DNA from: Bdellovibrionales bacterium
GTDB lineage: Bacteria > Bdellovibrionota > Bdellovibrionia > Bdellovibrionales > JAGQZY01
Length of the DNA: 64,000 nt
Reading direction: 5' to 3'
NCBI GenBank assembly: GCA_041736155.1
Contig: JBGSUL010000035.1
Location: forward strand, 2,100-66,099
Part shown: in pieces, positions 1 through 54,288 of the stretch
How positions within the stretch are numbered: position 1 is the stretch's first letter
Layout of the letters: every line of letters starts with the position of its first letter
Translations under genes and position numbers: made by a program
The notes under the pieces: model-generated
Database searches by the model: none
The model's input: only the letters and a program-made list of their open reading frames with translations
What the model was told of the DNA's origin: nothing

Positions 1-1966
1 TCTCGTAACCTTGGATATTCACTGGCGTGGCAAAACTTCGGTAATAATCACCATAAAACAAGCTCGGCTGCGAGTTTTGATCTACATTTCTGATAACATC
101 CGAGTAAGGAATCGCTGCCGAATTTAACTGGTAGAAGTGGATACTCTCTTGAGGTTTTTCTCCGGCCTCAATATCACGGCACCATTTTAGGAAAAGATCT
201 GCGCCGTTGTCATTTTGAAAATAAATACCTTCTTGAGCCTGCAGTACAGAATCAACCAAGGGCTGACGAATTTTCATAACCGTTTCGCCCACCGTGAGCA
301 AAAAATCATCCGCTGGAATTCCATAAGCTTCATGCGTTCGTGTTGCGAAAAAATAATAGACACTGTCTAGCATTTCCGAACGCAAGAGTGAGGATTGTGT
401 TTCCGCATTGTTGCCAACTTTTTGCCCTGAGGCGTTTGTAAAATCAAACCATGGTTCCGAAAACTGTCCTGTTAAAAAATAATCAAACATAAGAGTTGTA
501 TCCACCCGTCGATTGAACCAACCAAATTTCAACTCTACAGACCACTCCGTTTTTGCCATATAATAAAAAAAGCCCAACATATTGGGGTACACTACCGTCT
601 TTAAAAGATTTCTATTAATAGCACTAAAAAAATTACGAACTTGCTCGTCAGTCACGTCTGATTGAGCTCTGTTTGCTTCAATAAAAGACTGCATGGGCTT
701 GATGCGATTGGCATGCAGATCATTCCATAATTGTTTAAGTTGAGAACTTTCCTCAATAACCGTTTGAACAAACTCTGCTGTTTTAGCTTCTTGTCGCAAA
801 AATTTGTCTTTGAGTTGCTGCGTTGCCTCAAGAGACGTCTGCGCCAAATCCCAGCGAATAAGTAATTTTGCTAAATCAAAGAAACTTCCCATCGCTTCGC
901 GATGATTTTCCATTTTGGCCAGGTATGTCCCAGCCGCGCTAGTTTCAATCGTGCGAGAATAAATATTCAACAAAAGAAAGACGACCAAGGGATCTTTTTC
1001 GGGCAATACACTGAGGTCGATATCTTTATATGCTGGGTACTGCATAAGATCGCGACGCCCTTGAACCAGCACAGCGATTTTTTCTGTGACTTTGACTTTC
1101 ACTTTTTCAGCAATCGAAGGACGCTTTTTAGCATAAGCTGGAATTTGCAGAAGTAGCTCTTCACGCAAAAAATCAATAGTATTTATGGAAGGAGGCGTGT
1201 AATCCCACACGTTCAAAGATTCAAATAGTTCAGCATCTTCGTCTGTGATGCTTGTCCAGTCTTTGATAATCAAGATATTCATAATATTTATAGAATGCCG
1301 ACGACGTTCTTCGTGAGAAACTAGTATTGCCGTCCCTTCCTGCTGCAATTTTAAGACTGCGCTCACATAAAGCTGCTCCAAACGAATTTCTTGTCGACTT
1401 CCAGAAATGTCGTATCCGACTCCCAAATAACCAAGCTGTCGGACTAAATCTGTTTCGTTTTGCGCATAATACACCAACAGGGCGACAGTGGCCTTTTCCT
1501 TCTTGAGTGATTCCTTCACCAGCTCGCAACTTCTCAATTGAGGATCAACACACGATTCAACATACAGTTTACGAAACTCTTCAAAAGAATTTCGAAACAC
1601 AGAATCTGAAGCCTGCAATGCCTCTTGCCGCTGCCCCTCCCACTTCTTAAAAATATCTACATATAAGCCCAAGTACCCAGAAAATGTATTCGACGTATAA
1701 ACTTCTGGCTCCATCGCTGAAGGTCCAAAAAGAATTTCCTCCGTCATACTTAAGGCTTTTAATAAATCTTCGCGAGATTCAGACTGAATCAACGAGTTGA
1801 TCTCATCTTGTCGACTATTAAAGCGAATATCACTCTCTTGATTCTGCTGATGCACAATCACAGGTGTTTCTTCCGGCAAAACCGTTTGATGGCGAGGTGT
1901 TGTCTCACTCTTACAAGCGGTGACAAACAAGGCTATGGTTGTTAGTTTTAATAAATTAAAACGCAT
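1..1966 (-). CDS. Large lipoprotein of unknown function, 3' end outside window (at least 655 codons); paralog of the 2870-6766 product
   Basis: Absent from the ORF track because no stop codon lies in the window. I translated the minus strand by hand from the ATG at 1966 and the frame stays open down to position 2. N-terminus MRFNLLKLTTIALFVTAC is a signal peptide plus canonical lipobox (VTAC). The ATG overlaps the upstream stop by 11 nt. Collinear motif matches to the 1298-aa neighbour. Confidence 0.75.
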   Translation of the reverse strand, partial: MRFNLLKLTTIALFVTACKSETTPRHQTVLPEETPVIVHQQNQESDIRFNSRQDEINSLIQSESREDLLKALSMTEEILFGPSAMEPEVYTSNTFSGYLGLYVDIFKKWEGQRQEALQASDSVFRNSFEEFRKLYVESCVDPQLRSCELVKESLKKEKATVALLVYYAQNETDLVRQLGYLGVGYDISGSRQEIRLEQLYVSAVLKLQQEGTAILVSHEERRRHSINIMNILIIKDWTSITDEDAELFESLNVWDYTPPSINTIDFLREELLLQIPAYAKKRPSIAEKVKVKVTEKIAVLVQGRRDLMQYPAYKDIDLSVLPEKDPLVVFLLLNIYSRTIETSAAGTYLAKMENHREAMGSFFDLAKLLIRWDLAQTSLEATQQLKDKFLRQEAKTAEFVQTVIEESSQLKQLWNDLHANRIKPMQSFIEANRAQSDVTDEQVRNFFSAINRNLLKTVVYPNMLGFFYYMAKTEWSVELKFGWFNRRVDTTLMFDYFLTGQFSEPWFDFTNASGQKVGNNAETQSSLLRSEMLDSVYYFFATRTHEAYGIPADDFLLTVGETVMKIRQPLVDSVLQAQEGIYFQNDNGADLFLKWCRDIEAGEKPQESIHFYQLNSAAIPYSDVIRNVDQNSQPSLFYGDYYRSFATPVNIQGYE

Positions 1967-2867
1967 AGGCAATTCCTACTGAGTAGAGTCGACGGTATTT
2001 ATCGTAGTAATCAACAAGCAAACGATCATTTTCGGGATAGGCATTGTTGAGCATGCCCGCTGAAATCTGGAATCCAAAAAGATTTCCATACATGGAAATC
2101 CTATTTCCAAAAGTCATATCCCAACTGTTATCTAAAAAACGAGTATTTTGCGTAACAAAACTGACGCGAACGCCGAGTCCAGGAAGAATAAGATAATTTA
2201 AACCAATAATATTCGAAAAGTTCCAATCGCGATTGAGAGTGTCGCCTTCGTAAACAGAAAAACGCAGACGGTTCGATAAATAGTCTCCAGTTAAGCGATA
2301 AAACAACGATACTCGGTTCCACTGATTTGACTCTAAGTAGTTAGATAAAGTTAAATCAAAAAGTGTTTTGTCATACTGACTTCTTTCGCTTGTTGGCAGG
2401 GAAAGGGTCAAAGTTGTTGAATTCATTAATAAATAAGGCGTTGGTTTTCGTATATTATAAATCATTCCAAGACTGATATCCGACATCTGATGATAGTCGT
2501 TTTGATCATTATCTCGTACAATTTTATTTTTATTAGTCTCGTGATCAAATCCCACAGACAAAAATGAACTCAAACGATCTGTAAAACTATAGGTGGCTGA
2601 TATTCCCAGCGAATGAAGAACGGTTTTCTCGGTGGTTTGCTGAAGATCATCGTAACGACCGCCATAATAAATCACCGCGCCATAATTGTTGGCCTTCGGC
2701 ATAAAGTCTGACTGATCGACACCTAACTTTTTTCTTTCCATTTTGGGTTTGTTTAAATTATTCGATGACGCCTTAACGTCTGCGGTCGCAGTAATAGGAG
2801 TGACTGTAGTTTGCGCTACAGCCACGGCAACCCATAAATAAGAAAACAGACCCATAACGAAATGCAA
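1956..2867 (-). CDS. Predicted outer-membrane beta-barrel protein (303 aa), family not recognised
   Basis: Signal peptide (..LWVAVAVA/QTT). Amphipathic beta-strand pattern throughout (LGISATYSF, FLSVGFDH, ISLGMIYNI, VSLFYRLTG, LGVRVSFVTQ, FGFQISAGM). C-terminus ..SVGIAYAF ends in Phe, the usual OMP assembly signature. The track start is TTG; an ATG at 2855 is an alternative. There is a 2-nt gap to the upstream gene. Confidence 0.7.
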   Translation of the reverse strand: MHFVMGLFSYLWVAVAVAQTTVTPITATADVKASSNNLNKPKMERKKLGVDQSDFMPKANNYGAVIYYGGRYDDLQQTTEKTVLHSLGISATYSFTDRLSSFLSVGFDHETNKNKIVRDNDQNDYHQMSDISLGMIYNIRKPTPYLLMNSTTLTLSLPTSERSQYDKTLFDLTLSNYLESNQWNRVSLFYRLTGDYLSNRLRFSVYEGDTLNRDWNFSNIIGLNYLILPGLGVRVSFVTQNTRFLDNSWDMTFGNRISMYGNLFGFQISAGMLNNAYPENDRLLVDYYDKYRRLYSVGIAYAF

Positions 2868-2869
2868 AG

Positions 2870-5800
2870 TTAATTCCCCTCAGGTGCGTTTAAGACATCT
2901 TTTAATAAATTCAATTGTGGGGTGATGGTCCCACTAAAATAATAGTTTGTGTTTTTGTTCATATCCGTAACAAATCCACTGAATTTTTCATAAATGAGAG
3001 AACTAATCAGATGTTCACTCGGATGCGCCACCGTCGAAATAGCTGGATCTCCCACAGTAAACTGTCTATCTGTGCGATATTTAAATTTAAATGGCGTAAC
3101 CTCCCTGGTCTTCACCTCTTGCAAGAACTCCTTGTTCAGCTCGAAGTAGTTGTTCAACCATGGTCTATAGTTGTTCACAAAAATATCTTCCAGCTCGGGA
3201 GGAAAGGGAAAGATAAACGTTGAGCCTTTTAAGTTCTGATTAGATGTTACATATTCGACCAGCACTGGCACAAACCAAGTGTTTTCGGCAACCGTAACCT
3301 CTTCATCCGAAAAGATACGTCTGTAGACCAGATCGTAATAAGAATACAACCTGTGCTCTTTTTGCTTTTTGATAAGTTTCTCATAATTATTTTCGCCATA
3401 TTTGGTAACATTCCCCAAATAATTGAGAACAATTTCATCGCGTTCATCAATATTCATAAGATGAATAAACTTTTCATAATGATCTATCACTTCTTTAGCG
3501 CTGACTTTGCGGCAATCATTTGCAAATTGCTCATCAGAAGGATCTAGTGCTTCACAATTGACTTCATTATTAATGGATATTTTGTTCAATTTATATAAGC
3601 TGACCAAAATATTTCCTTTTTCTTCAATCGTCTTGGTCTCCACTGCTGTTTTAGCCCACGGAACTTGGCTAGCAAATGTTCTCACACCAGAAGCTACGAA
3701 TTGTGCACGTGCGTTTGCTTTTTGTGCAGGACTCCAAGTGCTCACGCCTGACCAATTAAAGTTGACGCTCACTTCGCCGTTTTCTTTATAAATCTCCTCA
3801 GTCTCCATGTTGCTCACTGGAAAAATTTCGTATTGACCAGGGAAAATCTCATTTAAATAGCTCTTTAACCGCGCCAGGGTATCCAGTTTGAAGGTCGTCA
3901 CACGTCCCACTTCGAATCGTGTGTACCCTTTTCGCTCTCTGTATGCCTGAGGAAACATAGGGTCTGTGGAGGCCACCATAAATTGATCACGTACGACATT
4001 CAATTGTGCACGAACGGCCTCAGATGAAGATATGTTCTGCAATACATCTAACTCATTGATAGACGGATCAGCTTCTTGTTCGATACGTAATGGACCGAGA
4101 ACCTGCTCTCTTTGCGAACTCATATAGATTGTTACGACATCATATACTTTATCGAACAATTCGCCCCAGTACTGGGCTTCACGAAATATAAGAGCCTGTC
4201 GAATATCGCGGTCCCGATTGGCAAAGTCCCACTCACAGCCATTGATGGCATCATGCATACCAAAGAATGTTTCTGAGTATTCAGCCTTCAATCTTTTAAA
4301 ATCTTGGAACTGCTCTTCGATGATGCCTGCAATTTCATCTGCAGTGCCAGTCTCTTTGCTATATTGACGATAGATTTCCAAAAGTATCTTTGCCATAATG
4401 TTTTTCTTCTGAAAATCGGCTTTTAAGTTTTTAAGCGCAGACGTTACAGATGAACTGTAAGTACTACTCACCAACGATCCCGTTTTTAATGGGCGACTTG
4501 CTGTTGCGTCATAAACACTGGAGTCTAAATCTAAAAAAGAGATTTGATTTTTAGCTTGCGTTCTTGGCTTCATCAATAAAATCAACTGCTCTTGCCAATG
4601 GAATTTCTCACCCATACTCTGCTGCATTTCGGAATGAATGCGAACTTCCTGAGCCTGAAGTTGACGTTCTTCACGACAAGTCTGTTGCAGACTATCAACG
4701 ACGTTTGAGTAATTTTCACGCACGCTTTGCAAACTAGTTGTGGCAGTTTCTAAACTATTCTCTGTCTCAAGAACCAGCCGCTTAACTACGACCTTGAAAA
4801 ATTCTTCTATAGAAAACTTCAAAAGAGGCTTTTTATTTGTTGAGTAAGTACTAAATATTTCTGTCATCAACGCATAATAAAATGTGTAGAGAACCTGCGT
4901 GGTGTTTAAAGCATTTCCATCATGACCAAAATTGAAAAGGGGCTTAAACCCACCACCAAAAAATGTCTTCATGACGGTTAAACTATCAATCGTAAACTCA
5001 CCAAAGAATGTTTGAATTTTATCATTCATTTCCTGTGAAGCAAAAATGTGCACCAGAGAATACATACTTGGATAGGTGACAAGATATTTAATATTTTTTC
5101 CCAAAGCCTCAACATTCGAAGTGATTTGATCCACTTTCTGCTTATTTGCGGGAATATTTTTATTGACCACGCGATTAGCAAAACTTTGTAAAGTTTTAGA
5201 GCGATCAATTGTTTTTCCCCACGCTTTGCGAATCTCCGCTGCCTCTTTTTGTGCTTCTGTCATAAGCTCAATGATTTTCGTATCGGTGCTTTCGCCGTAA
5301 AAACGATTCATTCGAGTATTTGTATAGACAATATTGTTTACCACTTGGAGTTTGATCAAGGACGTGATCGCATCCATAAGTCTATTTTGGTCCTTGCCTG
5401 TGCTCTGCCAAAAAGCAGCCGCATCGTCGATATTATAATGCTCGTAGTATATCTGATGAACTAAGAAAAAGTATTCATCCGCGGGAAATTCGACATCTGC
5501 ACCCATACTGGTAAGGATGGCTTTGCTCTCTTGACCAAAAAGTTCTATGCGTTCACCAACGGCCGTGGTCACACTTTGGTAAACTTCTTGCTGCACATCA
5601 GTCAAACGTGCGATTTCTTCAGAAGCCTTCCACGTTTCATCAGCGTTTTGAAAGCGAGTCTTCCACTCGCCGCGAATATTTTCTTTTTGAAAAGACACAC
5701 CCTGCTCATAGTCAGTGCCAACGCGATAGTAGAGACTCTCGACGGCCTCGTGGAGTTCCTTTGATAACTGACGTGGTTTTATCGATGGAATAGGCGTGCC

Positions 5801-6766
5801 CGCCGGACCAGGCACTGTGGTTTCAACAGGTAAAAGGCTCACCTCTTGTGCATAAATAAGATTTTGAGCCGCTAGGTGCAAAAGCTCGGTCATCGCCGGA
5901 CTTTGTGGGCTGTCTTCGTTCCGTGATAAGAGCCATGGATTTACAGTGCGAATAAGATCAATGTATCTCTCGGACGAATTAGCCAAGTTTTCGTCCATAT
6001 TGATTTTAAGGACATTGGCAAATAAATTGGCGTCCTGTGACAATCTTCGTTGGCTGATGGTGCGAGATTTGTCTTGCGAAAGACTCGCCGCCAATCTTTC
6101 TAGAAGCATAAAGCGTAAGTTTTCGTCCAAACGACGGTTGGCTAAATCAAATGCCGCATAAACTAGACGTAATTTTTCTTCTTCTTGTGATTCCTGGTCA
6201 TGAAGGATTCGTACAATGCGTACAATGTTATTGCTGTCTGCTCCACGATAGAAACTAATAAACGAACATGTGCCTCGCAAATCTTCATCGCAATCCCAAA
6301 GAATCTGACTTTTCATTCGTGGCAATAACGTTTTGAGCATCACATGATTTGGATCTTCCGTGTACATAAGGAGAACCGCTTGATCGAACAAAACCACCAA
6401 GCGAGGAATCAGCTGAATTCCCGTTGCTGTCTCAAGGTATCTGTGGTCGGGATCTAATAAATAATCCACGTTCAGCACAACATCTAAAAGAGGTGTTATC
6501 ACCTGAGCATAGAGAAGAGCTGTGTTGATAGAGCCTTTTTCTTTTGCAAGTTGCTCGATAACAACAGGTTCCACTTGTTGCAACAGCTTTTCGAGTCGAC
6601 TGACTTCGCTCAAGTTAAAAGGAACGACGCCTTGTCCTTGTTGATTCGTAGTCGCTACACCATCTGGCAGGGCTCTTTTTCTTGTCGATTCTTGCGAATT
6701 ACAAAAACTCAAGGAGAAAGCCAGAGCTACAAGAAGTGATATTTTATTAAGATTTAATCTCATCAT
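2870..6766 (-). CDS. Giant secreted or lipidated protein (1298 aa), no recognisable catalytic motif
   Basis: N-terminus MMRLNLNKISLLVALAFSLSFC/NSQ is a signal peptide with a non-canonical lipobox (Phe at -1). Long predicted-helical, coiled-coil-like stretches. 9-nt gap to the upstream metzincin gene. Shares collinear motifs with the 1-1966 product. Confidence 0.8.
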   Translation of the reverse strand: MMRLNLNKISLLVALAFSLSFCNSQESTRKRALPDGVATTNQQGQGVVPFNLSEVSRLEKLLQQVEPVVIEQLAKEKGSINTALLYAQVITPLLDVVLNVDYLLDPDHRYLETATGIQLIPRLVVLFDQAVLLMYTEDPNHVMLKTLLPRMKSQILWDCDEDLRGTCSFISFYRGADSNNIVRIVRILHDQESQEEEKLRLVYAAFDLANRRLDENLRFMLLERLAASLSQDKSRTISQRRLSQDANLFANVLKINMDENLANSSERYIDLIRTVNPWLLSRNEDSPQSPAMTELLHLAAQNLIYAQEVSLLPVETTVPGPAGTPIPSIKPRQLSKELHEAVESLYYRVGTDYEQGVSFQKENIRGEWKTRFQNADETWKASEEIARLTDVQQEVYQSVTTAVGERIELFGQESKAILTSMGADVEFPADEYFFLVHQIYYEHYNIDDAAAFWQSTGKDQNRLMDAITSLIKLQVVNNIVYTNTRMNRFYGESTDTKIIELMTEAQKEAAEIRKAWGKTIDRSKTLQSFANRVVNKNIPANKQKVDQITSNVEALGKNIKYLVTYPSMYSLVHIFASQEMNDKIQTFFGEFTIDSLTVMKTFFGGGFKPLFNFGHDGNALNTTQVLYTFYYALMTEIFSTYSTNKKPLLKFSIEEFFKVVVKRLVLETENSLETATTSLQSVRENYSNVVDSLQQTCREERQLQAQEVRIHSEMQQSMGEKFHWQEQLILLMKPRTQAKNQISFLDLDSSVYDATASRPLKTGSLVSSTYSSSVTSALKNLKADFQKKNIMAKILLEIYRQYSKETGTADEIAGIIEEQFQDFKRLKAEYSETFFGMHDAINGCEWDFANRDRDIRQALIFREAQYWGELFDKVYDVVTIYMSSQREQVLGPLRIEQEADPSINELDVLQNISSSEAVRAQLNVVRDQFMVASTDPMFPQAYRERKGYTRFEVGRVTTFKLDTLARLKSYLNEIFPGQYEIFPVSNMETEEIYKENGEVSVNFNWSGVSTWSPAQKANARAQFVASGVRTFASQVPWAKTAVETKTIEEKGNILVSLYKLNKISINNEVNCEALDPSDEQFANDCRKVSAKEVIDHYEKFIHLMNIDERDEIVLNYLGNVTKYGENNYEKLIKKQKEHRLYSYYDLVYRRIFSDEEVTVAENTWFVPVLVEYVTSNQNLKGSTFIFPFPPELEDIFVNNYRPWLNNYFELNKEFLQEVKTREVTPFKFKYRTDRQFTVGDPAISTVAHPSEHLISSLIYEKFSGFVTDMNKNTNYYFSGTITPQLNLLKDVLNAPEGN

Positions 6767-6775
6767 ATATTATCC

Positions 6776-9700
6776 TTACTTGTTTATGTACTCGTACACC
6801 TGAGGTAAAATCCAACCATTCAACGAGAGCGCTGTCGAACTGATCAAACCAATACCTTTGGTCGAAGCATCGCAGCCATTCTGCGCAGGGATTAAACCTT
6901 CGCGCGTTTGGTAAAAGTCGAAAGCTGCATCTACGCTTTTTTCAAAGTTAATCTGCGCATCACCATCGACGTTAATATTGGGATCAATCTGGAATCCTTG
7001 AAAGTCTGGATTGCTAGCATTAAAATAGCTAGCAAGGCCCGTGACTCCACCAATACACTTTTCTAATTCTTGATTGGTTAAGCTGGAAATCGCATTTTTA
7101 ATGGTGAATCCCTCGAGAGGATCATCATATGACGTTTTATCATAGGTCACTTCTAGGGCCCAGATATACGAAGAGTCCTGACTTAAAAAACGTAATTTCG
7201 TCAGCGGCATGATTAGCTGATTCTCGTTACCACGAATAATCACCTTCCGATTCCGCAGAATATACGCATCTGACAAGTCGATGAGTTCACGTTTTGCAAG
7301 ATTGTAAAGTTTGGGAGAAAAAGTGAACATCTTATTTTGTGCCTCACCATTCTTAGGAACGGCTTTTAACAAAATCGCTACGATATCTACATTAAAACTC
7401 GTTTGTCCTTTAAGATCTTCAATGTAATCACTATCAAAACCACGAATCTGACCGTCATTGCTCAACTGGAAAGTGCGTCGCAAGAAATACGATAAATACA
7501 GGTTGGCAATACTCATGGTTGCTGAGTCCTGTAGAATAGTTCCGCCAAATCCCATGTTGGTTTTAATGGCCGTACCCATGACATCCGTAAACTCTTCAGG
7601 ATAGAGAGCGTAGTAACCCGTTTTTCCAGTATTAGGGTCAGAAAATCTGGGCTTTCCTATTCTCCACCAGCCATATTCCATGGTCGAAGAGGTGTTGGTA
7701 AAGACATCTAGCGCGGCAATTTTTAAATAGAGAAGACCCAATTGATCATAACGCCCAAAAATACGCGAATAATCATACGTCGCATTTCCACCGCGCAAAC
7801 CCGTCGGTAAAATAGCATCGTCGTAATTCATCAAGGCGTGGTCTGGTCCTTTCAAGCTCAGCAATACTTTTGCCACATCTAAAGATTTTCTTGTCGCACG
7901 GCAGAGCTTTTGCACTTCCGTAAAAGCCACTCCCTTTTCATAAAGAGTGTTTTCTAAATCGCGAAAACCCTGTTCATCAAGCTCAAGGATTTCGCGACTG
8001 CCAACAACATTTTTGTAAGTTTGCAATAGTGATGCGGCATCAGAAGCTGCTTGTATCCCACGACGCGATGTCGTGCGAGCCACTCCGGGTGTGACTTCTA
8101 AGGTCAGTCGAGCAAAATCCAAATCCCAACCTTGGGGAGCTTCTTGTGGATCGACACAAGCTCTCGAAAATCGCAGAAGCGCTTTTTCATCTTTCTTAAG
8201 TCGATTAAAAACGTCCAGGTAAACTTCATTGGTCGCAATTTGATAACGAAGTTCATCGTAAAACGTACGATTCTTATTCATCAAACTATAGGTTTGAACC
8301 CAGAGTAAATAATTGGCCCAATTCGAGTTACCGCCAGTGGCCGTAGTAAAGGAATTCATGCGCGAAACAAAAGACTCCGTATACTCTTTAAAGCCCTCAT
8401 TCACATTCGTGAAGGCGTCGTAACCGCGATCCCAACGCTGACAGTAGGGACTTGTTCCCACCCACGCGTCCATATCGGAACACTGAGGTAGATAGGTTGT
8501 TGTGTACTCACGCCCATCGTCGCCCGTGCGTTTTCCAGGAATTGTTCCATCTTTGTAAATTTCAAAAAACGTAAACTTTTCGTCACCGGGGATGTACGTA
8601 GCAAACTGCTGTTTGTATAAATAAGTGAGGGTGAGCTCATCCTGTGCTTGCATTTTGACTTTGTCATAAGGCAAAGCGACTTCCGTATGACCACTTTGGT
8701 AGTCCATGATACTCGAGTAGTTTTGCATGAGCTTCGCTTCTTCAGCGAGATAATTGTAAACAGAGTCTGGCACAGTTCCGCGTACAGGTAGACGATTGCC
8801 TTCGAATTGGTGACCTAATCCAACGCAATGACCCCATTCGTGGAGCATGACGTTTTTAATCATCGACTTAGCTGCCTCTTGTTTTTCAATGGAGTTCAGA
8901 CCCGCCGTTGCTTCTTGCATGGCAAAATAATGGTTTTCGAGACGATTTTCCATATCGTATGCGATACCCATTTTAGAATTAAACTCATCTGCCAAGCGCT
9001 GGTTATCTTGGGGACCCATAATGCCCGTATTAGCAAAATTCCTTTGCTCTGTTTCACCATCTGAGAAAACGGGATCCACACCAAAACGTGAAGCATTCAA
9101 AATTTTGGCGATATGGTCTTCTTCTGTCAGAATTTCTGTTTTGAATTCTTCAAGTAAGTCCGTATTCACATAACCAGGATAAGCATCACGGAAAGTCACA
9201 AAGTCTTTTGAGGCTTGAACTTCTACGATAGATGCTACGAAAGCGTCTACGGCTTCACGCAACTCTGTTTCGCGAGCCGAAATATCTTCCTCACTATCTT
9301 GTCGATCTCTCGACGGTGGCGCTAAACGTTGTTGCAATTCTTGGATTGCACCATTGATGTGATTATCGAAGAAAGATCTGTCGGAGAGTTGCGCAAAACT
9401 GGGGTGTGACTGGATTGATTTAAACCCTGGAGACCACGCAGCCAAATTTAACTGTCCCTTAATATCAAAGTAGTAAGGATTGTGTTTTACCGAGTCCAAA
9501 CCTTGAAACAAAGATTCTGTATTGCGGATAATTGCGTCCGCCACAGATTCACTGTCACGGTTGACGATATAGTCAATCAAACCACCCCACACAATGGTAC
9601 CTGCCCAGAGGATTTCACCGGTAGTTATGTCGGCATTCGCAAGACCGATACCGAGAGGAGCGCGCATAGAAAGAGCCGGGTCATCGACCCATGTGATGCT

Positions 9701-10783
9701 TGGACAACGTAGATCGTAGTCATATTTCATCTTGCGAGGAGATACGACAAACGCTTTTTGTCCGGGAGCCACAGCCTTGATATTCACCATGGCTTTGTTC
9801 ATTTCTTCGAGTACATCGACGCCAATTTGACGATAATTGCGATAATCCTCTGGGAAACTATTCAAGCACACTTCTATGGGTTTTTGTAAATCCCAGTGGG
9901 CGGCATAGTTCACCTCGTTAAATCCATTGGGTTTATTTCCAAGGATATGAAGTATGTTCATATACTGAGTTGTGCTCTGTTGATTGTATCGCGTCTTTAC
10001 AAAACCAGGCGTTCCTTTGAATTCTAAAAAGTTAAAACGCATTTCGTGTTGATTGAGAGACCCAAACCAACTCGATAGCAACGTTCCGTTAAATGCTAAA
10101 AAATTCGCGTCTGGTTTGACTTCGACTTCGATTTCATAAACATCGGTCAGCATATTTCCGCCTGCGGCTTGTGCTACCGCATCAGCAAAGCTATCAGGCC
10201 CTGGAGATTTATTGCTGTAAAATCGAATTCCTTTTAAGTTGATGTCCATGATCGGACTCAACTCCCAATTTTTACGATCCATTACTTTTTTGTAAACGTT
10301 CAATTCACGCCCCTTAGAGTCCACATCTCGCTCGTAGAAGTAATGCGCGGTGATAGGTAGAGTGAAAATCAGCGGCCACAATTTGGTGTCGTTGGGATAA
10401 TCCTGATCGATTTCTCGAGCTTCGAGATTTGTGCCATCGTGACTGATCATAAATTTCATATTGCAGTGACGAGAGTCATACGGTGTCGCCGTCAATCCCA
10501 AAGCATTTTTCCAACGTCCCGCCTGTGAAACAGATGCCCAGCCACAGAGCCAGCGTTTATCGGCGATGGTGACTTCGTTCGTGGCTTGACTGATGTCGAT
10601 CCCAAAGAAAACCTTGCGGATGGAAAGCGTTCCGTTCTGTACGATGGACATTGTTCGTGGGTTTTCGAGACCAGGCGAAGGATTGAGCGCCTCGGGTGTC
10701 GTATAGGTACACGAGCTAAGGAAAACCCCAAGGAGAAGAAGGTGAAAATTCAATACTACATTACGACCTACAAACTTTTGCAT
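6776..10783 (-). CDS. Giant lipoprotein zinc metalloprotease (1335 aa), metzincin-type
   Basis: Signal peptide plus lipobox (..LLLLGVFLSSC, Cys25). HEWGHCVGLGH (HExxHxxGxxH) is encoded at 8810-8842, and SSIMDY (Met-turn-like) at about 8699-8713. Upstream segments (IEVCLNSFPEDYRNY..VLEEMNKAM, ITWVDDP..ADITTGEILWAG) resemble, from memory, the DUF5117/DUF4953 zinc-dependent metalloprotease family. Confidence 0.8.
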   Translation of the reverse strand: MQKFVGRNVVLNFHLLLLGVFLSSCTYTTPEALNPSPGLENPRTMSIVQNGTLSIRKVFFGIDISQATNEVTIADKRWLCGWASVSQAGRWKNALGLTATPYDSRHCNMKFMISHDGTNLEAREIDQDYPNDTKLWPLIFTLPITAHYFYERDVDSKGRELNVYKKVMDRKNWELSPIMDINLKGIRFYSNKSPGPDSFADAVAQAAGGNMLTDVYEIEVEVKPDANFLAFNGTLLSSWFGSLNQHEMRFNFLEFKGTPGFVKTRYNQQSTTQYMNILHILGNKPNGFNEVNYAAHWDLQKPIEVCLNSFPEDYRNYRQIGVDVLEEMNKAMVNIKAVAPGQKAFVVSPRKMKYDYDLRCPSITWVDDPALSMRAPLGIGLANADITTGEILWAGTIVWGGLIDYIVNRDSESVADAIIRNTESLFQGLDSVKHNPYYFDIKGQLNLAAWSPGFKSIQSHPSFAQLSDRSFFDNHINGAIQELQQRLAPPSRDRQDSEEDISARETELREAVDAFVASIVEVQASKDFVTFRDAYPGYVNTDLLEEFKTEILTEEDHIAKILNASRFGVDPVFSDGETEQRNFANTGIMGPQDNQRLADEFNSKMGIAYDMENRLENHYFAMQEATAGLNSIEKQEAAKSMIKNVMLHEWGHCVGLGHQFEGNRLPVRGTVPDSVYNYLAEEAKLMQNYSSIMDYQSGHTEVALPYDKVKMQAQDELTLTYLYKQQFATYIPGDEKFTFFEIYKDGTIPGKRTGDDGREYTTTYLPQCSDMDAWVGTSPYCQRWDRGYDAFTNVNEGFKEYTESFVSRMNSFTTATGGNSNWANYLLWVQTYSLMNKNRTFYDELRYQIATNEVYLDVFNRLKKDEKALLRFSRACVDPQEAPQGWDLDFARLTLEVTPGVARTTSRRGIQAASDAASLLQTYKNVVGSREILELDEQGFRDLENTLYEKGVAFTEVQKLCRATRKSLDVAKVLLSLKGPDHALMNYDDAILPTGLRGGNATYDYSRIFGRYDQLGLLYLKIAALDVFTNTSSTMEYGWWRIGKPRFSDPNTGKTGYYALYPEEFTDVMGTAIKTNMGFGGTILQDSATMSIANLYLSYFLRRTFQLSNDGQIRGFDSDYIEDLKGQTSFNVDIVAILLKAVPKNGEAQNKMFTFSPKLYNLAKRELIDLSDAYILRNRKVIIRGNENQLIMPLTKLRFLSQDSSYIWALEVTYDKTSYDDPLEGFTIKNAISSLTNQELEKCIGGVTGLASYFNASNPDFQGFQIDPNINVDGDAQINFEKSVDAAFDFYQTREGLIPAQNGCDASTKGIGLISSTALSLNGWILPQVYEYINK

Positions 10784-10877
10784 TCTTGATCCTTTGCGTT
10801 TGTTCTTGTCTTAAAACTTATTGAATTATCCGTAAGGTAGGACATTTGACTTGTGACTTTTGCCGAAGTTCCCAAGC

Positions 10878-10946
10878 TTCTAAAACACCCAATTCTTTAA
10901 AAAACCCATAACCCCAATTTTGTTCCAGGCTTCTTAAAAAACACCC
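10878..10946. promoter_or_regulatory. Three direct copies of TTCT(T)(T)AAAA(AA)(CA)CCC in the promoter region of the giant operon
   Basis: Read directly from the plus strand: cTTCTAAAACACCC (10878-10890), aTTCTTTAAAAAACCC (10892-10907), cTTCTTAAAAAACACCC (10930-10946). They lie 95-165 nt upstream of the 10783 start in a 355-nt intergenic region. Confidence 0.45.
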
Positions 10947-11065
10947 TATGACAACCCAACCTAGGTGCTAATATATAAGGCATTTTGCAAATTTTATTAA
11001 GACGTGATTTGAATTGATGAAATGATTATACGGTTGGTGCCTTTGTATTCACTCACCTTGCGTTA

Positions 11066-11098
11066 TAAAAATAAAAAAACGGCTCTATTCAAGAGCCG
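11066..11098 (-). terminator. Rho-independent terminator after the 156-aa gene
   Basis: The minus strand reads CGGCTCT-tgaat-AGAGCCG followed by TTTTTTTATTTTT. This is a perfect 7-bp GC-rich stem plus a U-run, 40 nt after the stop at 11139. Confidence 0.85.
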
Positions 11099-11138: not shown

Positions 11139-11609
11139 CTATCTTGACATCTTATAGAAGACATCCTGATAAGCCACTTCACCTGTCTCGCTATGATCGT
11201 AGACTGTAATGCCTAAATATTGTTCACCTATCTCGATGGCATCTTTTGGCTTCTGAATACCAATGATCTCCACCACTTTTTGGTTCATTCCCTGCTCATC
11301 ATTCATAACAAAGAAGAGTTTTCGCGAGAAACTCGAACAAAGAATATCAATGTCTTTGCCCGTGGGCTTACCATTAAAAGGGCTGATCTCGGTGATGGTA
11401 ACCAGGTACGGACACGCTAAGTCATAGGTGGTTAGCTGCAACTTGATTTCAAAAGCTCTTTGCGGACTGTTGAGATTTTTGCTCACCCACAATCCCTGGA
11501 GGTCTTTGATAAATACCTCTCTCTGAATGACTTCTGGCCACGGAACTTCTGGTCCGGCAAAAATCATTGGCGCGGTCATGAACATGAATATGAATACGAA
11601 CGTTTTCAT
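11139..11609 (-). CDS. Small secreted protein (156 aa), unknown function
   Basis: Signal peptide MKTFVFIFMFMTAPMIFA/GPE. Its ATG overlaps the regulator stop (ATGA). Followed by a strong terminator. Confidence 0.7.
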   Translation of the reverse strand: MKTFVFIFMFMTAPMIFAGPEVPWPEVIQREVFIKDLQGLWVSKNLNSPQRAFEIKLQLTTYDLACPYLVTITEISPFNGKPTGKDIDILCSSFSRKLFFVMNDEQGMNQKVVEIIGIQKPKDAIEIGEQYLGITVYDHSETGEVAYQDVFYKMSR

Positions 11610-12724
11610 TGCTGCTCCCTGGTTTGCTCTTCGACGACGACACTCGACTCTTTATTAAAATAATAACCGTTTTTAGATCTGAAAATATATTTGGGTTTTT
11701 CGATATCTGGCTCGATCAATTGACGTAAACGTTTGATCGTCACATAGATTTTATTGTCATGAACTTCTGGGTTGTAAGTTTGTTTCCAGATTTGTTTTAC
11801 CAACTGTTCTTTACTAAAAGATTGGCCAGGATTGGTCAAAAATAACTTGAGCAAATCAATAAGAATAAACTGATTATTAAAATCAATCCGCCCTTTGCCT
11901 TTTTCAAAAACAGAATGGTCAGAACTATTAAAAATAATATCGTAGCGATGCTCTTGCGAACTCCCGATCGATTCGGCCAACACTTCGACAAAACTGTAAA
12001 GTCGGCGCAGATTCTTTTTATCAATCGATTGTTGTACAAGCTTGATATATTTTCGCGCTTCTTCCAGCTGTCCGGCCTCTTTGTAAGTTAACGCCATTCC
12101 ATAGAGGAGTGATTGCGAAATGTGAAAGTTTTTTTGTTCTTTGAGTGTGGCGTACCCTTGCCAAAGAATATCAATGGCCTCTTCAAATTTGCGTAATTTA
12201 CGCATGATGTGGGCCTTTAAAAGATGCATCGACACACGTACTTCGGGCATGGGCATGACATTCATGAAGACCTGAAGATTGTAGATTTCTTTGAGCGCAT
12301 CTTCGAGACGGTCTTGCGAGTAATAAGAAACAGCCAAGCCAAAGATCGCAAAACACACAGTCTCTTTGTTGTCTTGCGCGAGAGAATGTGTGAGCGCTTT
12401 TTGGCAATATTCAATGGCGCGGTCGTGTTCGTTTTTATAAGACGAACAGAGTGCGAGGACGTAGTAGGTCTTGCCATTGACGGGCACACCCTCTTTGCTC
12501 ACGCGTTCTAAAAGTAAATTTTTATAGAATTCAATTTTATCAAATTCGAGGAGTTCAGCATAACAACGGAACAGTAAATGAACGACTTCTAAAAATTGCT
12601 CATCATGCTCTTGAGAAAGTAATTCGGCAGCAGCGGGCACAAGCAAGTCCACGGCTTTTAATACATCACCGCGTTCATAATACAGACGACCAATCTCTAA
12701 AGGTGCGATTGATTTCGACTCCAT
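11606..12724 (-). CDS. Transcriptional regulator: N-terminal TPR-like repeats plus C-terminal OmpR/PhoB-type winged helix, no receiver domain
   Basis: The C-terminus LTNPGQSFSKEQLVKQIWKQTYNPEVHDNKIYVTIKRLRQLIEP..YIFRSKNGYYF matches the Trans_reg_C pattern. The N-terminal roughly 250 aa are helical repeats. I prefer the ATG at 12724 (GAGGGGGAAA just upstream) over the track's TTG at 12736. Confidence 0.75.
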   Translation of the reverse strand: MESKSIAPLEIGRLYYERGDVLKAVDLLVPAAAELLSQEHDEQFLEVVHLLFRCYAELLEFDKIEFYKNLLLERVSKEGVPVNGKTYYVLALCSSYKNEHDRAIEYCQKALTHSLAQDNKETVCFAIFGLAVSYYSQDRLEDALKEIYNLQVFMNVMPMPEVRVSMHLLKAHIMRKLRKFEEAIDILWQGYATLKEQKNFHISQSLLYGMALTYKEAGQLEEARKYIKLVQQSIDKKNLRRLYSFVEVLAESIGSSQEHRYDIIFNSSDHSVFEKGKGRIDFNNQFILIDLLKLFLTNPGQSFSKEQLVKQIWKQTYNPEVHDNKIYVTIKRLRQLIEPDIEKPKYIFRSKNGYYFNKESSVVVEEQTREQQ

Positions 12725-12891
12725 TTTCCCCCTCAAGCAAACTCAATTTTGCCTTCCCAAAGCCGCGTTTGGAGGGAACAGTTTATCGCGAGATTTTGGA
12801 TTTACAAGGGGGTTGCTGGGAGAATTTTAAATTTTTTTCAAAGTTCGACGCACCATCTCCCCGCCCAGGCAGGCGGAGAGCGGCTTTGCGG

Positions 12892-15351
12892 TTAATGATA
12901 CGAATGGCCCGTGTATTGAGCTTTAAGCCCTAAATTCGTATCGCGAGTGGACTTAAACAAGTCTTTCGCGTTACGGATATCCAGAGCGTGCACCAACACC
13001 TGATCCACGTGATCCACCAGAACGATTTTAAGATCTTTTACAACTTCCTCAGGAATATCGCGGAGATCCTTTTCGTTCTCTTTCGGTAGGATGACAGTAC
13101 GGATTCCTCCTCGGTAAGCGGAAAGGATCTTTTCTTTGACCCCGCCGATCCCAAGAACGCGCCCACGGAGAGTGATCTCTCCCGTCATCGCCACCGTACG
13201 CAGAACTGGTGTCTTCGTCACGGCGGACACAATGCTCGTCGTGATGGCACAACCGGCAGATGGACCATCTTTCGGGATGGCACCTTCTGGAACGTGAATG
13301 TGGACGTCGATATTGAAGAAGAACTCTTTATCCAAACCAAACAATGGGCCGCGAGAACGCACATAGCTCATCGCTGCGGAACAAGATTCCTTCATTACAT
13401 CACCCAATTGGCCAGTAACGGTAAATTTGCCTTTACCAGGAACCACCGTCACCTCTATAGGCAGAAGATCTCCACCCACTTCGGTATAGGCCATCCCATT
13501 TGTCAGGCCGATTTCATTGGCTTCTTCAATTTTACCATGTCGGTACTTATGAGGTCCCAACATGTCGGTGAGTTTCTTCGCCGTAATAGTGTAAGTCTTT
13601 TTGATGCCCGCTTTGCTGACTTGTGAGCGTGTCGGTTTTTTTGCATTGCTCTTCATGTGGCGCTCAATCTCTTCTTCGCGCACAATTTCTTTGGCAATCT
13701 TACGACACACATTTGCTAATTGTCTTTCCAAGTTTCTCACACCCGCTTCGCGTGTGTAGTACTGGATGATGTCTTTGATCACACCATCAGCCAGTTGAAT
13801 TTTGTAATCGGACAAACCGTGCTGCTGTAATTGCTTCGGAAGTAAGTACTTCTTCGCAATATGCAATTTTTCGCTGTCGATGTAGCCTTCGATGGAAATA
13901 ACTTCCATGCGATCTAACAACGGACGCGGAATCGAGTGCAGTGAGTTTGCCGTAGTAAAAAACATCACTTTGGAAAGATCATATTCCACTTCCAAATAGT
14001 GATCTTGGAAGGTGGCATTTTGCTCAGGATCAAGAACCTCAAGCATGGCTGCCGACGGATCCCCTCTGAAGTCGTTGCTCATCTTATCGATTTCATCGAG
14101 AAGAATCAGCGGGTTGCCGAACTCCACTTTGCGAAGGGATTGAATAATTTTGCCAGGCATCGCTCCTACGTAAGTCTTACGGTGACCACGAATCTCGGCT
14201 TCATCACGCACGCCCCCGAGGGAAATACGCGTAAAGCTGCGGTTCAAGGATTTTGCCACAGACTTCGCCAGTGATGTTTTACCAACCCCTGGAGGTCCGA
14301 CGAGGCACAAGATAGGCCCCTTGACCTCACTGCTGAGACAATGCACGGCAATGTGTTCGAGGATGCGTTCTTTGACTTTTTCCAATCCCCAATGATCTTC
14401 ATTAAGAATGTTTTCAGCAAATTCCAGGTCTTTTTTCTCTTCCGAATAATTAAACCATGGCAAAGTGAGGAGCCAGTCGATGTAGTTGCGCACAACGGCC
14501 GCTTCGGCACTCATCGGCGACATCATCTTTAATTTTTTCAACTCTTTGAAGACCTTTTCTTTGGCCTCTTTGCTCATCTTCTTCTCGCGAGCTTTTTCTT
14601 CCAGTTCCATCAACTCAGCTTGGTAATCATCTTTTTCACCCAGCTCTTTTTGAATCGCCTGCATTTGCTCGTTGAGATAGTATTCTTTTTGCGACTTCTC
14701 CATCTGCTTTTTCACGCGACCGCGGATCTTCTTCTCGACTTCGAGAATTTCGATTTCGCTGGTCATCATGTTCAGTAGCTCTTCGAGACGTGTTGACGTA
14801 TTAATTTGCTCTAAAAGTTTTTGTTTATCCTCGAGCTTTAGGTTGAGCTGAGCGACAATAATATCCGCTAGTTCACCCGCTGTTTCAATACTCGAAACGC
14901 GCATCAGGATTTCTGGTGGGATGCGTTTGTTGAGTTTTACATACTTCTCAAACGTCATTTTAACCGAGCGTATGAGAGCCTTGAGCTCCACTTCGTCGCC
15001 AAGATCTTCGTCAAAGACTTTGACTTTGACCTTAAAAAATTTGTCGTTGTCGGTGAAGCTTTCGATTTTTACGCGCTTTTTGCCCTCGATGAGCACTTTC
15101 ACCGTGCCATCTGGTAAACGCAAAAGCTGTATGATCGTCCCCAACGTACCAATTTGGTAAACTTCATCGGGATTAGGATTGTTGGTCTTCGCATCTTTCT
15201 GCGCAGCTAAAACAATGTCCACTTGTTTGGACATGGCCTCTTCGAGAGCATTAATGCTCTTTTCGCGGCCCACAAACAACGGCATCATCATGTGCGGGAA
15301 AATAATCAGATCTCTCAGCGGCAGTAACGGTAATTCAAGCATTTCAGCCAT
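12892..15351 (-). CDS. lon: ATP-dependent Lon protease
   Basis: 819 aa. Has a LON N-terminal domain, Walker [14 protein letters not shown] and the catalytic-Ser region [26 protein letters not shown] precedes the ATG. Confidence 0.97.
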
Positions 15352-15406
15352 CCTTCCCCCTTGTTGTTAAGACAATTTGGAGGAAGATTTCGGTTAGCTT
15401 AAAATC

Positions 15407-16702
15407 CTAGGCACTCTCAGCGCCAGAGGACTTCGCTTTCTGAACTTCTTCCTCGGTTCTATGCACCAAGACGGGATCTGCTTTCTTGCTGATCACGTCT
15501 TCATTTATTGTACATTCCTTCACGTTCTCCATGGAAGGAATTTCATACATGATGTCCAGCATTGCAGTTTCAATCACACCGCGAAGTCCACGCGCCCCAG
15601 TTTTTCTATCCAAGGCTTGCTTGGCAATCGCCTTGAGAGCGGGATCCGTGAACTTAAGGTCTACATTTTCATAAGAAAAGAGCTTTTGGTATTGCTTTAT
15701 CAACGCGTTTTTTGGTTTGACGAGAATCTCGATCAGTGCATTCTCATCCAGCTCCTCAAGAATGGCCACAACCGGAAGTCGCCCGATGAATTCTGGGATC
15801 AATCCGAACTTCGCCAAATCGTCTGGTTCTAATTTTTTCAAGGCGCTCGATAGCCCCATGTGATCTTTTTCTTTTTGGGTTTTGATATCTGCACCAATAC
15901 CCAGAGTTTTTTGGGTCACGCGATTTTCAACGATTTTATCTAGACCAACAAACGCACCACCACAGATAAAGAGGATGTTGGTTGTGTCGACCTGAATAAA
16001 CTCCTGCTGCGGATGCTTTCTTCCCCCTTTAGGCGGAAGATTGGCGACCGTGCCTTCGAGAATTTTTAAAAGAGCTTGCTGAACACCCTCTCCGCTCACA
16101 TCTCGTGTGATCGAAGGGTTCTCTGATTTGCGGGAAATCTTATCGATTTCATCGATATAAATGACCCCACGTTGCGCTTTTTCAATGTCGTAATCGGCAG
16201 ATTGTAAAAGATTGAGAACCACGTTCTCCACATCTTCACCCACGTAGCCGGCTTCTGTTAATGCTGTGGCATCGGCCATCGCAAAAGGCACGTTCAGGAT
16301 TTTTGCAATTGTTTGCGCTAAGTATGTTTTCCCCGACCCGGTGGGGCCGATCAGGAGAATGTTACTCTTCGCAATTTCGATATCTTCTTTTTTGCGTGAT
16401 TTACTGAGGTTATTAATACGCTTGTAGTGGTTATGTACCGCTACCGAGAGCGCTTTTTTCGCTGTGTTTTGGCCAATGACGTATTCATCCAAGAAGGCTT
16501 TGATCTCAGAAGGTTTTGGAACCTTAAACTGATGCGATTGTTTTTCTTCGCGCCCTTTTTCTTCTTCGATAATATCCGTACAAAGATCAATACATTCATC
16601 ACAAATGTAAACGCCAGGCCCCGCGATCAATTTTTTGACCTCGTTCTGGTTTTTACCACAGAAACTACATCTTAAAAGGCTCGCGCCCTCGCGTCGGCTC
16701 AT
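15407..16702 (-). CDS. clpX: ATP-dependent Clp protease ATP-binding subunit ClpX
   Basis: Zinc-finger [14 protein letters not shown], Walker [13 protein letters not shown]. 4-nt overlap with clpP. Confidence 0.97.
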
Positions 16703-17334
16703 TGCTTATTTTCCTTTTTAGAGGATTTACGTGAAGCCACAATCGTATCAACAAGACCAAATGCTTTGGCCTCTTCTGCTGTCATATAATTATCTCGATC
16801 CATAGCGCGATCAAGAACATCATAATGTTGCTTTGTGTGGTGTTCATAAATTTCAGTCAAAGTTCTCTTCGTTCTCAGCAACTCACGGGCGTGAATTTCG
16901 ATATCACTCACTTGGCCACCAAGACCACCGCCGCTAATCAGAGGTTGATGAATCATTACGCGCGCATGCGGTAAGCAATAACGCTTGCCGGGGGCGCCCG
17001 CCGTTAGCAAAAGCGAACCCATGCTGGCCGCCATCCCAATGCAGGTTGTTGCCACATCGCATTTTACGAACTGCATAATGTCGTAGATACCCATGCCCGA
17101 CGTCACAACGCCGCCAGGTGAATTGATATAGAGTTGAATGTCTTTTTCTGGGTTATCCGCCTCAAGAAAAAGCATTTGCGCGATCACATTGTTGGCAACG
17201 GCATCATTAATGGCTGTACCCAAGATGATAATGCGATCCTTTAGCAGCCGAGAATAGATGTCATAACTTCTTTCGCCGCGTGAGGTTTGCTCAATGACTA
17301 TTGGAACTAGTGTATTCATAATTTCGTTGCTCAT
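16699..17334 (-). CDS. clpP: ATP-dependent Clp protease proteolytic subunit ClpP
   Basis: 211 aa. Has the GMAASMGS catalytic-Ser motif and the MIHQP His motif. Confidence 0.97.

Positions 17335-54212: not shown

Positions 54213-54288
<76 letters not shown>

Follow-up and report, generated by a model that had tools for sequence, protein, structure and literature searches.

Dentilisin of Treponema denticola (PrcB-PrcA-PrtP) is an outer-membrane lipoprotein protease complex that is encoded in one operon and associates with a barrel-type sheath protein. The Sus-like loci of the Bacteroidota encode the SusC barrel, SusD, and the paralogous lipoproteins SusE and SusF, which serve starch utilization. 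In Neisseria and other Proteobacteria, the gene for Slam, a DUF560 barrel, adjoins surface-lipoprotein genes, and the clients of Slam are β-rich proteins of ~200-700 residues. Here we examine a four-gene locus that resembles each of these systems in part. It lies at the left end of a 64,000-nucleotide stretch of DNA from a Bdellovibrionales bacterium (GenBank assembly GCA_041736155.1, contig JBGSUL010000035.1, positions 2,100 to 66,099 of the forward strand), called the window below. The locus encodes two large proteins, A and D, which are probable lipoproteins and very probably ancient paralogs of one another, together with a predicted metzincin lipoprotein, B, and a probable outer-membrane β-barrel, C.

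How does the locus compare with the described systems? Like dentilisin, it comprises several lipoprotein genes in one operon, and one of the lipoproteins is a predicted protease. The dentilisin protease, however, is a subtilisin and not a metzincin, its accessory lipoproteins are small and are not paralogs of each other, and A and D, which have no PDB or Pfam matches, show no sequence relationship to that system. As in Sus-like loci, lipoprotein genes, some of them products of duplication, lie on either side of a barrel gene, here a probable one, and the locus also encodes a lipoprotein that is an enzyme or is predicted to be one. C, however, has only ~300 residues, and neither TonB-dependent receptor or plug domains nor SusD/RagB TPR-like domains were found in C, A or D at Pfam E ≤ 1. 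Moreover, the enzyme here would be a protease rather than a glycosidase, and the phylum is a different one. C, if it is a barrel, would be like Slam a small outer-membrane barrel encoded beside putative lipoprotein clients, but nine C orthologs gave no match to DUF560, the Slam barrel, at E ≤ 10; in addition, the model of A is almost wholly α-helical, and A and D are ~1200 residues long. The three systems are thus best taken as functional analogies, not homologies. Literature searches found no description of the operon or of the A/D family.

Results

Relationship of A and D

Gene A (2870-6766, minus strand) is the upstream member of the pair and encodes a probable lipoprotein of 1298 residues, 100 % identical to protein P0001. 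The downstream member, gene D (1-1966, minus strand), is cut by the window edge, so that 655 N-terminal codons are visible. The first 655 residues of P0016, a protein of 1209 residues that scores 960 bits against the D-family hidden Markov model (HMM), are exactly those of window D, and P0016 and A share one 109,859-bp NCBI contig. P0016 is therefore the full-length D.

An earlier note on this DNA had proposed, from collinear peptide matches picked out by eye, that the two large proteins are paralogs. All 12 of the quoted peptide strings are present and collinear, close to where the note had roughly placed them, at residues 514-660 of A (4787-5227, minus strand) and 412-559 of D (290-733, minus strand). 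These segments are the best-conserved core shared by the two proteins, with the motifs W...R, NRN..K..VYPNM and PWF.F, the columns of which are invariant across the A+D alignment. The N..YP.M core motif reads KNIKYLVTYPSM in A and NRNLLKTVVYPNM in D. Nearer the N-termini, each protein has a C-x7-C loop, CDEDLRGTC in A (6266-6292, minus strand) and its counterpart CVDPQLRSC in D (1526-1552, minus strand); these columns are invariant, and the cysteine pair is so across the whole superfamily described below.

Pairwise alignment of the window translations by BLASTP gives a single high-scoring segment pair of 167 residues, with 24 % identity and E 8e-7 (D393-549 versus A495-642). This segment is unaltered under SEG filtering, so the similarity is not confined to low-complexity segments. 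The Smith-Waterman score of A versus D is 115, as against 48.4 ± 6.3, with a maximum of 76, for 300 shuffles (z = 10.6; Gumbel p ~4e-7). When orthologs from other genomes are included, the BLASTP E-value of D versus A is 9e-16, across approximately residues 100-600 of D and 120-650 of A. Family profiles find each other in both directions: with E-values scaled to 1.84e9 sequences, A-family members are matched by the D-family HMM at E 1e-12 to 1e-22, and D-family members by the A-family HMM at E 1e-7 to 1e-11. Profile-profile comparison by hhalign of a 9-member A family with a 7-member D family gives a probability of 99.6 % and E 5.6e-25 over 890 columns, pairing A144-1161 with D128-1137.

Each profile was also split in half. 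The N-terminal halves match at 99.9 % probability (E 8e-33) and the C-terminal halves at 96 % (E 4e-9), while the four cross-half comparisons that served as controls all gave probabilities below 1 %. Since both halves are independently significant and the cross-half comparisons are null, the similarity of A and D is full-length and collinear, and is neither a low-complexity match nor an internal repeat. An internal repeat within A or D is accordingly rejected by the half-split test; B or C as a third paralog is rejected as well (hhalign probability < 3 % versus the A and D families). Taken together with the conservation of the locus described next, we have hardly any doubt that A and D are full-length ancient paralogs that belong, with B and C, to a conserved module.

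The four-gene module

The four genes at the left end of the window are co-directional on the minus strand, in the 5' to 3' order B-A-C-D. Gene B (6776-10783) encodes a metzincin lipoprotein of 1335 residues that is unrelated to A and D, and gene C (1956-2867) a secreted protein of 303 residues. B and A are separated by 9 nucleotides, and A and C by 2, while C and D overlap by 11 nucleotides (1956-1966, minus strand), so that the ATG of D falls within the codons for the last residues of C (...Y-A-F) and its stop. Throughout the window's clade the operon is tightly packed, with gaps of 2-9 nucleotides. A terminator-like hairpin with a T-run (11080-11098, minus strand) closes the preceding gene and marks the upstream boundary, so that B heads the operon.

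All four proteins carry export signals. The signal peptides of B, A and D end in a cysteine, and that of C is a plain one. The lipoboxes of B (LSSC) and D (VTAC, in a translation that begins MRFNLLKLTTIALFVTAC) are canonical. The signal peptide of A, MMRLNLNKISLLVALAFSLSFC, keeps the lipid cysteine in an LSFC box with an atypical residue at -1. This peculiarity extends through the A clade (window 6698-6766, minus strand, and the A orthologs), whose lipoboxes read LSFC, LANC, LTHC and LTNC, with F, N or H at -1; the D and B lipoboxes, unlike these, have the usual G, A or S.

Is the arrangement found elsewhere? The six-frame open reading frames (ORFs) of all fetched loci were scanned with HMMs for the four proteins, and identical loci were collapsed (L002 with L003, L004 and L012; L005 with L006 and L007), giving 12 lineages, the window and 11 others. 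All 12 encode B, A, C and D together, with one A-type and one D-type copy each; both paralogs are thus present in every homologous cluster examined, the check that the earlier note had proposed. The rest of the 64-kb window contains no further copy of A or D. Eleven lineages (the window, L001, L002, L005, L008, L009, L010, L011, L013 and L017, plus L014) have the order B-A-C-D, and the remaining one (L015/L016) has C-B-A-D. The earlier note had held that the duplicates bracket the barrel gene, and in the 11 lineages they do; in L015/L016 they do not, A and D being directly adjacent. What stays constant, then, is the set of four genes with a single A-type and a single D-type protein; the barrel gene is bracketed in most lineages but need not be. 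The note's view that these genes are not unrelated neighbors holds more generally, as the four form a tightly packed, co-inherited unit. The metzincin lipoprotein B, encoded just upstream of A, was left out of that note, though it is as constant in the set as A, C and D.

An identical 11-nucleotide C/D overlap is present in 10 of the 11 B-A-C-D loci (the window, L001, L002, L005, L008-L011, L013 and L017), which implies translational coupling. A GGAGG-like stretch precedes the overlap in several loci. Identity to the window proteins is 47-59 % for B, 37-45 % for A, 42-45 % for C and 30-37 % for D; this proportional divergence fits vertical co-inheritance, with D the fastest-evolving of the four. 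The flanking genes differ. In the window they are clpP-clpX-lon and a TPR/winged-helix protein, and elsewhere they include ATP synthase, GH3, mfd and ABC-F genes, so that the module is self-contained and chromosomal. In L001 (14718-18349), D is split into ORFs of 768 and 440 residues. Since P0012, which has the same N-terminus, is intact at 1210 residues, the split is probably a frameshift or an assembly error.

A deep-branching member of the set is the metagenomic locus L014, the one locus given by a subfamily-level scan of metagenomes. It encodes a partial B', an A' of 1172 residues, a C' of 283 residues that ends in ...INYKF, and a partial D' that is also a lipoprotein. A' is only ~17 % identical to window A. 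The presence of both copies in every locus examined, L014 included, bears out the earlier note's suggestion that the duplication is ancient. Profile-profile scores among the subfamilies show a loose split into an A type (g10, g11, g13, g14 and g12) and a D type (g19, g18, g4, g6 and g3), and in L014 D' groups with g4 and g6, and A' with g13 and g14. For four groups of known gene position, the quartet score sum is 939 for ((A,A'),(D,D')) versus 827 and 768 for the alternatives. These values fit one duplication older than the split between the lineages; being score sums, they do not amount to a proper phylogeny and could be distorted by differences in rate.

The A/D superfamily

A word-indexed protein search for relatives returned 9 A-like and 6 D-like proteins. 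One might think from these numbers that the family is rare. When 1.84 billion cluster representatives (clusters at 50 % identity) were searched exhaustively by HMMER with a merged A+D profile, 359 representative clusters matched at E ≤ 1e-3, of which 230 are at E ≤ 1e-30, and the apparent rarity is thus an artefact of the search. Among the 150 matches listed, nearly all are 1050-1330 residues long, and a lipobox is present in 124 of the 134 full-length members. There are about 10 or more subfamilies, whose mutual identity is 15-25 %, and all 10 subfamilies align pairwise over 826-1112 columns. Where the sources give organism names, these are Bdellovibrionales, Pseudobdellovibrionaceae or Bdellovibrionia, all within the Bdellovibrionota. 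A and D belong to the superfamily by collinear homology, the lipobox cysteine, the C-x7-C loop and the N..YP.M motif.

Scans of A and D against Pfam and NCBIfam gave chance-level matches only and no family, and those of window C likewise did not rise above chance level. Sequence searches of the PDB with five family profiles, A and D among them, gave nothing credible, and A and D contain no recognizable catalytic motif. Judged by its sequences, the A/D superfamily is an unannotated family of large lipoproteins of ~1100-1300 residues.

Invariant or nearly so throughout are the lipid cysteine, the C-x7-C loop, two further cysteines, a tryptophan, the N..YP.M helix and several aromatic residues. 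These residues make up a structural core, with no obvious active site among them. Directly after the lipid cysteine there is a semi-conserved tether, C-x2-K-x2-P-R-x2-H-E, as in D (window 1880-1915). Of 124 sequences, 51 have the K at +3, 60 have the R at +7 and 57 have the H at +10. The motif is kept across subfamilies that are otherwise 15-25 % identical, and it may be a sorting or docking signal.

An AlphaFold2 (AF2) model of residues 101-1298 of A, the sole model built for the superfamily, was made from a 16-sequence A+D alignment. It is reasonably confident, with a mean predicted local distance difference test score (pLDDT) of 78.6 and a predicted template modeling score of 0.68; in the shared core pLDDT is ~85-93. 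The model is almost wholly α-helical, with several helices of 30-50 residues and a few β-hairpins. Foldseek searches of the PDB and BFVD with this model gave only α-solenoid and tape-measure-like noise, with TM-scores of ~0.1 and no match at E < 1e-3. The sole fold matches are to α-solenoid proteins such as karyopherins and HEAT-repeat kinases, at TM-scores of 0.05-0.15, which amount to generic helical resemblance and not homology.

The partners B and C

B contains the zinc-binding motif HEWGHCVGLGH (HExxHxxGxxH; residues 648-658, 8810-8842, minus strand) and the Met-turn SIMDY (residues 691-695, 8699-8713, minus strand). In the four B orthologs aligned, SIMDY and the five defining positions of the zinc motif (H, E, H, G and H) are invariant. 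The Pfam family PF16313 (DUF4953, Met-zincin) matches B at 26.0 bits, above the gathering cut-off of 24.2; the match is marginal and partial, covering model positions 4-177 of 316, and it recurs in all four B orthologs scanned, with a best E-value of 1.1e-6. Within the module the likeness to PF16313 is limited to B, A and D being unrelated to that family, and B differs from it in being a lipoprotein of 1335 residues that matches about half of the model. About 600 residues before the catalytic domain and about 500 after it have no family match. B has its own conserved N-terminus, from which the A/D tether motif is absent. By motif and profile, B is a bona fide metzincin, and with zinc motif and Met-turn both intact it looks active.

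C has a plain signal peptide without a cysteine and ends in ...IAYAF, its last residue being aromatic. The Pfam family PF13505 (OMP_b-brl) is matched by two of nine C family members, with a best E-value of 2.4e-4, window C itself having no match. In the C orthologs Pfam gave this generic barrel family, one chance match (MTIP_N) and nothing else. In the PDB the C profile matches a porin weakly (E 0.2), and ~12 amphipathic strands can be counted by eye only; a single-sequence AF2 model is unusable (pLDDT 30). C is probably a small outer-membrane β-barrel.

Upstream region and neighboring genes

An exact match to a sigma-E-type promoter, GGAACTT-N16-TCAAA, lies at 10845-10872 (minus strand), 62-89 nucleotides upstream of the B start. 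The pattern occurs twice in the window versus 0.1 matches expected, and it is not conserved upstream of B in the other loci. A different element, TGGCAY-N5-GTGAA, is found once per locus, 40-55 nucleotides upstream of B, in three independent lineages (L001 5995-6010; L005 961-976, the same as L006 5984-5999; L015 2223-2238, the same in L016). It resembles a -24/-12 element without the canonical TTGC, and it is absent from the window. The upstream region of B in the window also has two near-identical direct repeats, GGGTGTTTT(TT)A(A)GAAGC(C/T)TGG(G)AAC, at about 10870-10950 (minus strand).

Beyond the operon, and likewise on the minus strand, are a small ORF without a family match directly upstream (11139-11609), a gene whose product combines TPR repeats with an OmpR/PhoB-type winged-helix domain (11606-12736), and lon, clpX and clpP (12892-17334). 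This upstream neighborhood is not conserved at the other loci. The sole tRNA gene of the window is tRNA-Phe (GAA), at 54213-54288 on the plus strand.

Discussion

What does the module do? We lean, with modest confidence, toward a reading in which A and D would be non-interchangeable subunits of an envelope complex built around the protease B, together with the barrel C. A and D would be two structural or substrate-handling subunits, probably a pseudo-symmetric helical pair that arose by duplication, and would assemble with B at the outer membrane. C would be the membrane partner, either an anchor or a conduit for the conserved N-terminal tethers of A and D. B would be the catalytic subunit and proteolysis the catalytic output of the complex, A and D supplying scaffold, substrate-binding or gating surfaces and not chemistry. 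The residues kept throughout the superfamily, chiefly cysteines, aromatics and prolines, point to a scaffold role for A and D, which do not look like enzymes, and their cysteine pairs imply that both proteins reside in an oxidizing compartment. That both copies are retained, that the genes are closely spaced and that all the products carry export signals speaks for two non-redundant subunits of one complex.

Several observations weigh against an A-D complex of this kind. The association of A with D, the heteromeric assembly suggested in the earlier note, and that of the pair with B and C are deduced from co-retention, from synteny and gene coupling, and from shared export signals. The assignment of C as a barrel draws on weak profile matches and sequence features. 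Many D, E, R, H and N residues, such as those in NRRLD, LRFMLLER, RDRDIR and DEYFF...H, are invariant within the A clade, so that an enzymatic activity of an unrecognized kind is possible. Finally, the order C-B-A-D in L015/L016 (1201-13579), with C 155 nucleotides upstream of B and a gap of 19 nucleotides between A and D, indicates that neither bracketing of the barrel gene nor a fixed translational coupling of C and D is essential.

Must A and D touch one another at all? They might instead be diverged paralogs that act independently, for example as alternative substrate-capturing or adaptor lipoproteins that serve B, in the manner of SusE and SusF. We consider this unlikely, though it is the best placed of the alternatives. 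The variable gene order would suit such proteins, as would the faster evolution of D (30-37 % versus 37-45 % identity for A), which fits a relaxed or diversifying specificity. One would think, however, that independent binding modules would differ in copy number among genomes, as they usually do, and every sampled lineage has exactly one A-type and one D-type protein per cluster, with no other copy in the 64-kb window.

The persistence of the tether motif across a superfamily of 15-25 % identity, and the constant presence of C, which has the size of a small barrel, would also suit a role for C as a dedicated translocon or assembly factor that brings A, B and D, the three lipoproteins, to the cell surface, with the tether as its recognition or threading signal. 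A stable complex of A and D with C would then not be required afterwards. Slam and the BamA-assisted threading of RcsF are analogs of such a role. C lacks a DUF560 match, however, and B, which would be one of the clients, lacks the A/D tether motif; we regard this proposal as distinctly unlikely.

The invariant charged and polar residues of the A clade speak for another possibility, that A, D or both are enzymes of an unrecognized class, or regulators of B such as an inhibitor, a chaperone or a pro-domain-like protein. The fold of A, having no PDB match, does not allow function to be read from structure, which leaves some room for this idea. Across the superfamily, however, what is invariant is four cysteines, and what is nearly invariant is W, N, Y-P-x-M, aromatics, G, E, L and R, the pattern of a structural core, and at 1200 residues A and D would be unusually large for inhibitors. 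Roles of this kind seem to us highly improbable. That the similarity of A and D is due to chance or composition, the genes being unrelated, might be asked of the single 24 % identical segment seen in the window alone, but can be dismissed given the z-score of 10.6, the lack of any SEG effect, a profile E-value of 6e-25 over 890 columns, reciprocal HMM matches and null cross-half controls.

If A and D are indeed paired subunits around B, a more specific picture can be sketched, one that is tentative and that we ourselves rather doubt in its full detail. The module would be an undescribed outer-membrane machine specific to the Bdellovibrionota, in which a helical A/D pair of new fold forms a pseudo-symmetric cage or platform around a giant metzincin. 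The pair would be tethered through or beside its dedicated barrel by the K-x2-P-R-x2-H-E segment, and the machine would work on the cell surface, perhaps attacking or processing proteins of the prey envelope.

There is interest in Bdellovibrio-like predators as living antibiotics, and the majority of their envelope proteins have yet to be characterized. A duplication is by itself an ordinary event, and the value of this one lies in the conserved module that it reveals. A and D represent a lipoprotein superfamily of 359 clusters that is missing from Pfam and NCBIfam, lacks a structural relative and deserves a database entry. They form an obligate and ancient pair that is genetically locked to an intact metzincin and a probable barrel across lineages that have diverged to <20 % identity. 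The module is thus a concrete, four-component candidate for a lineage-specific envelope protease complex.

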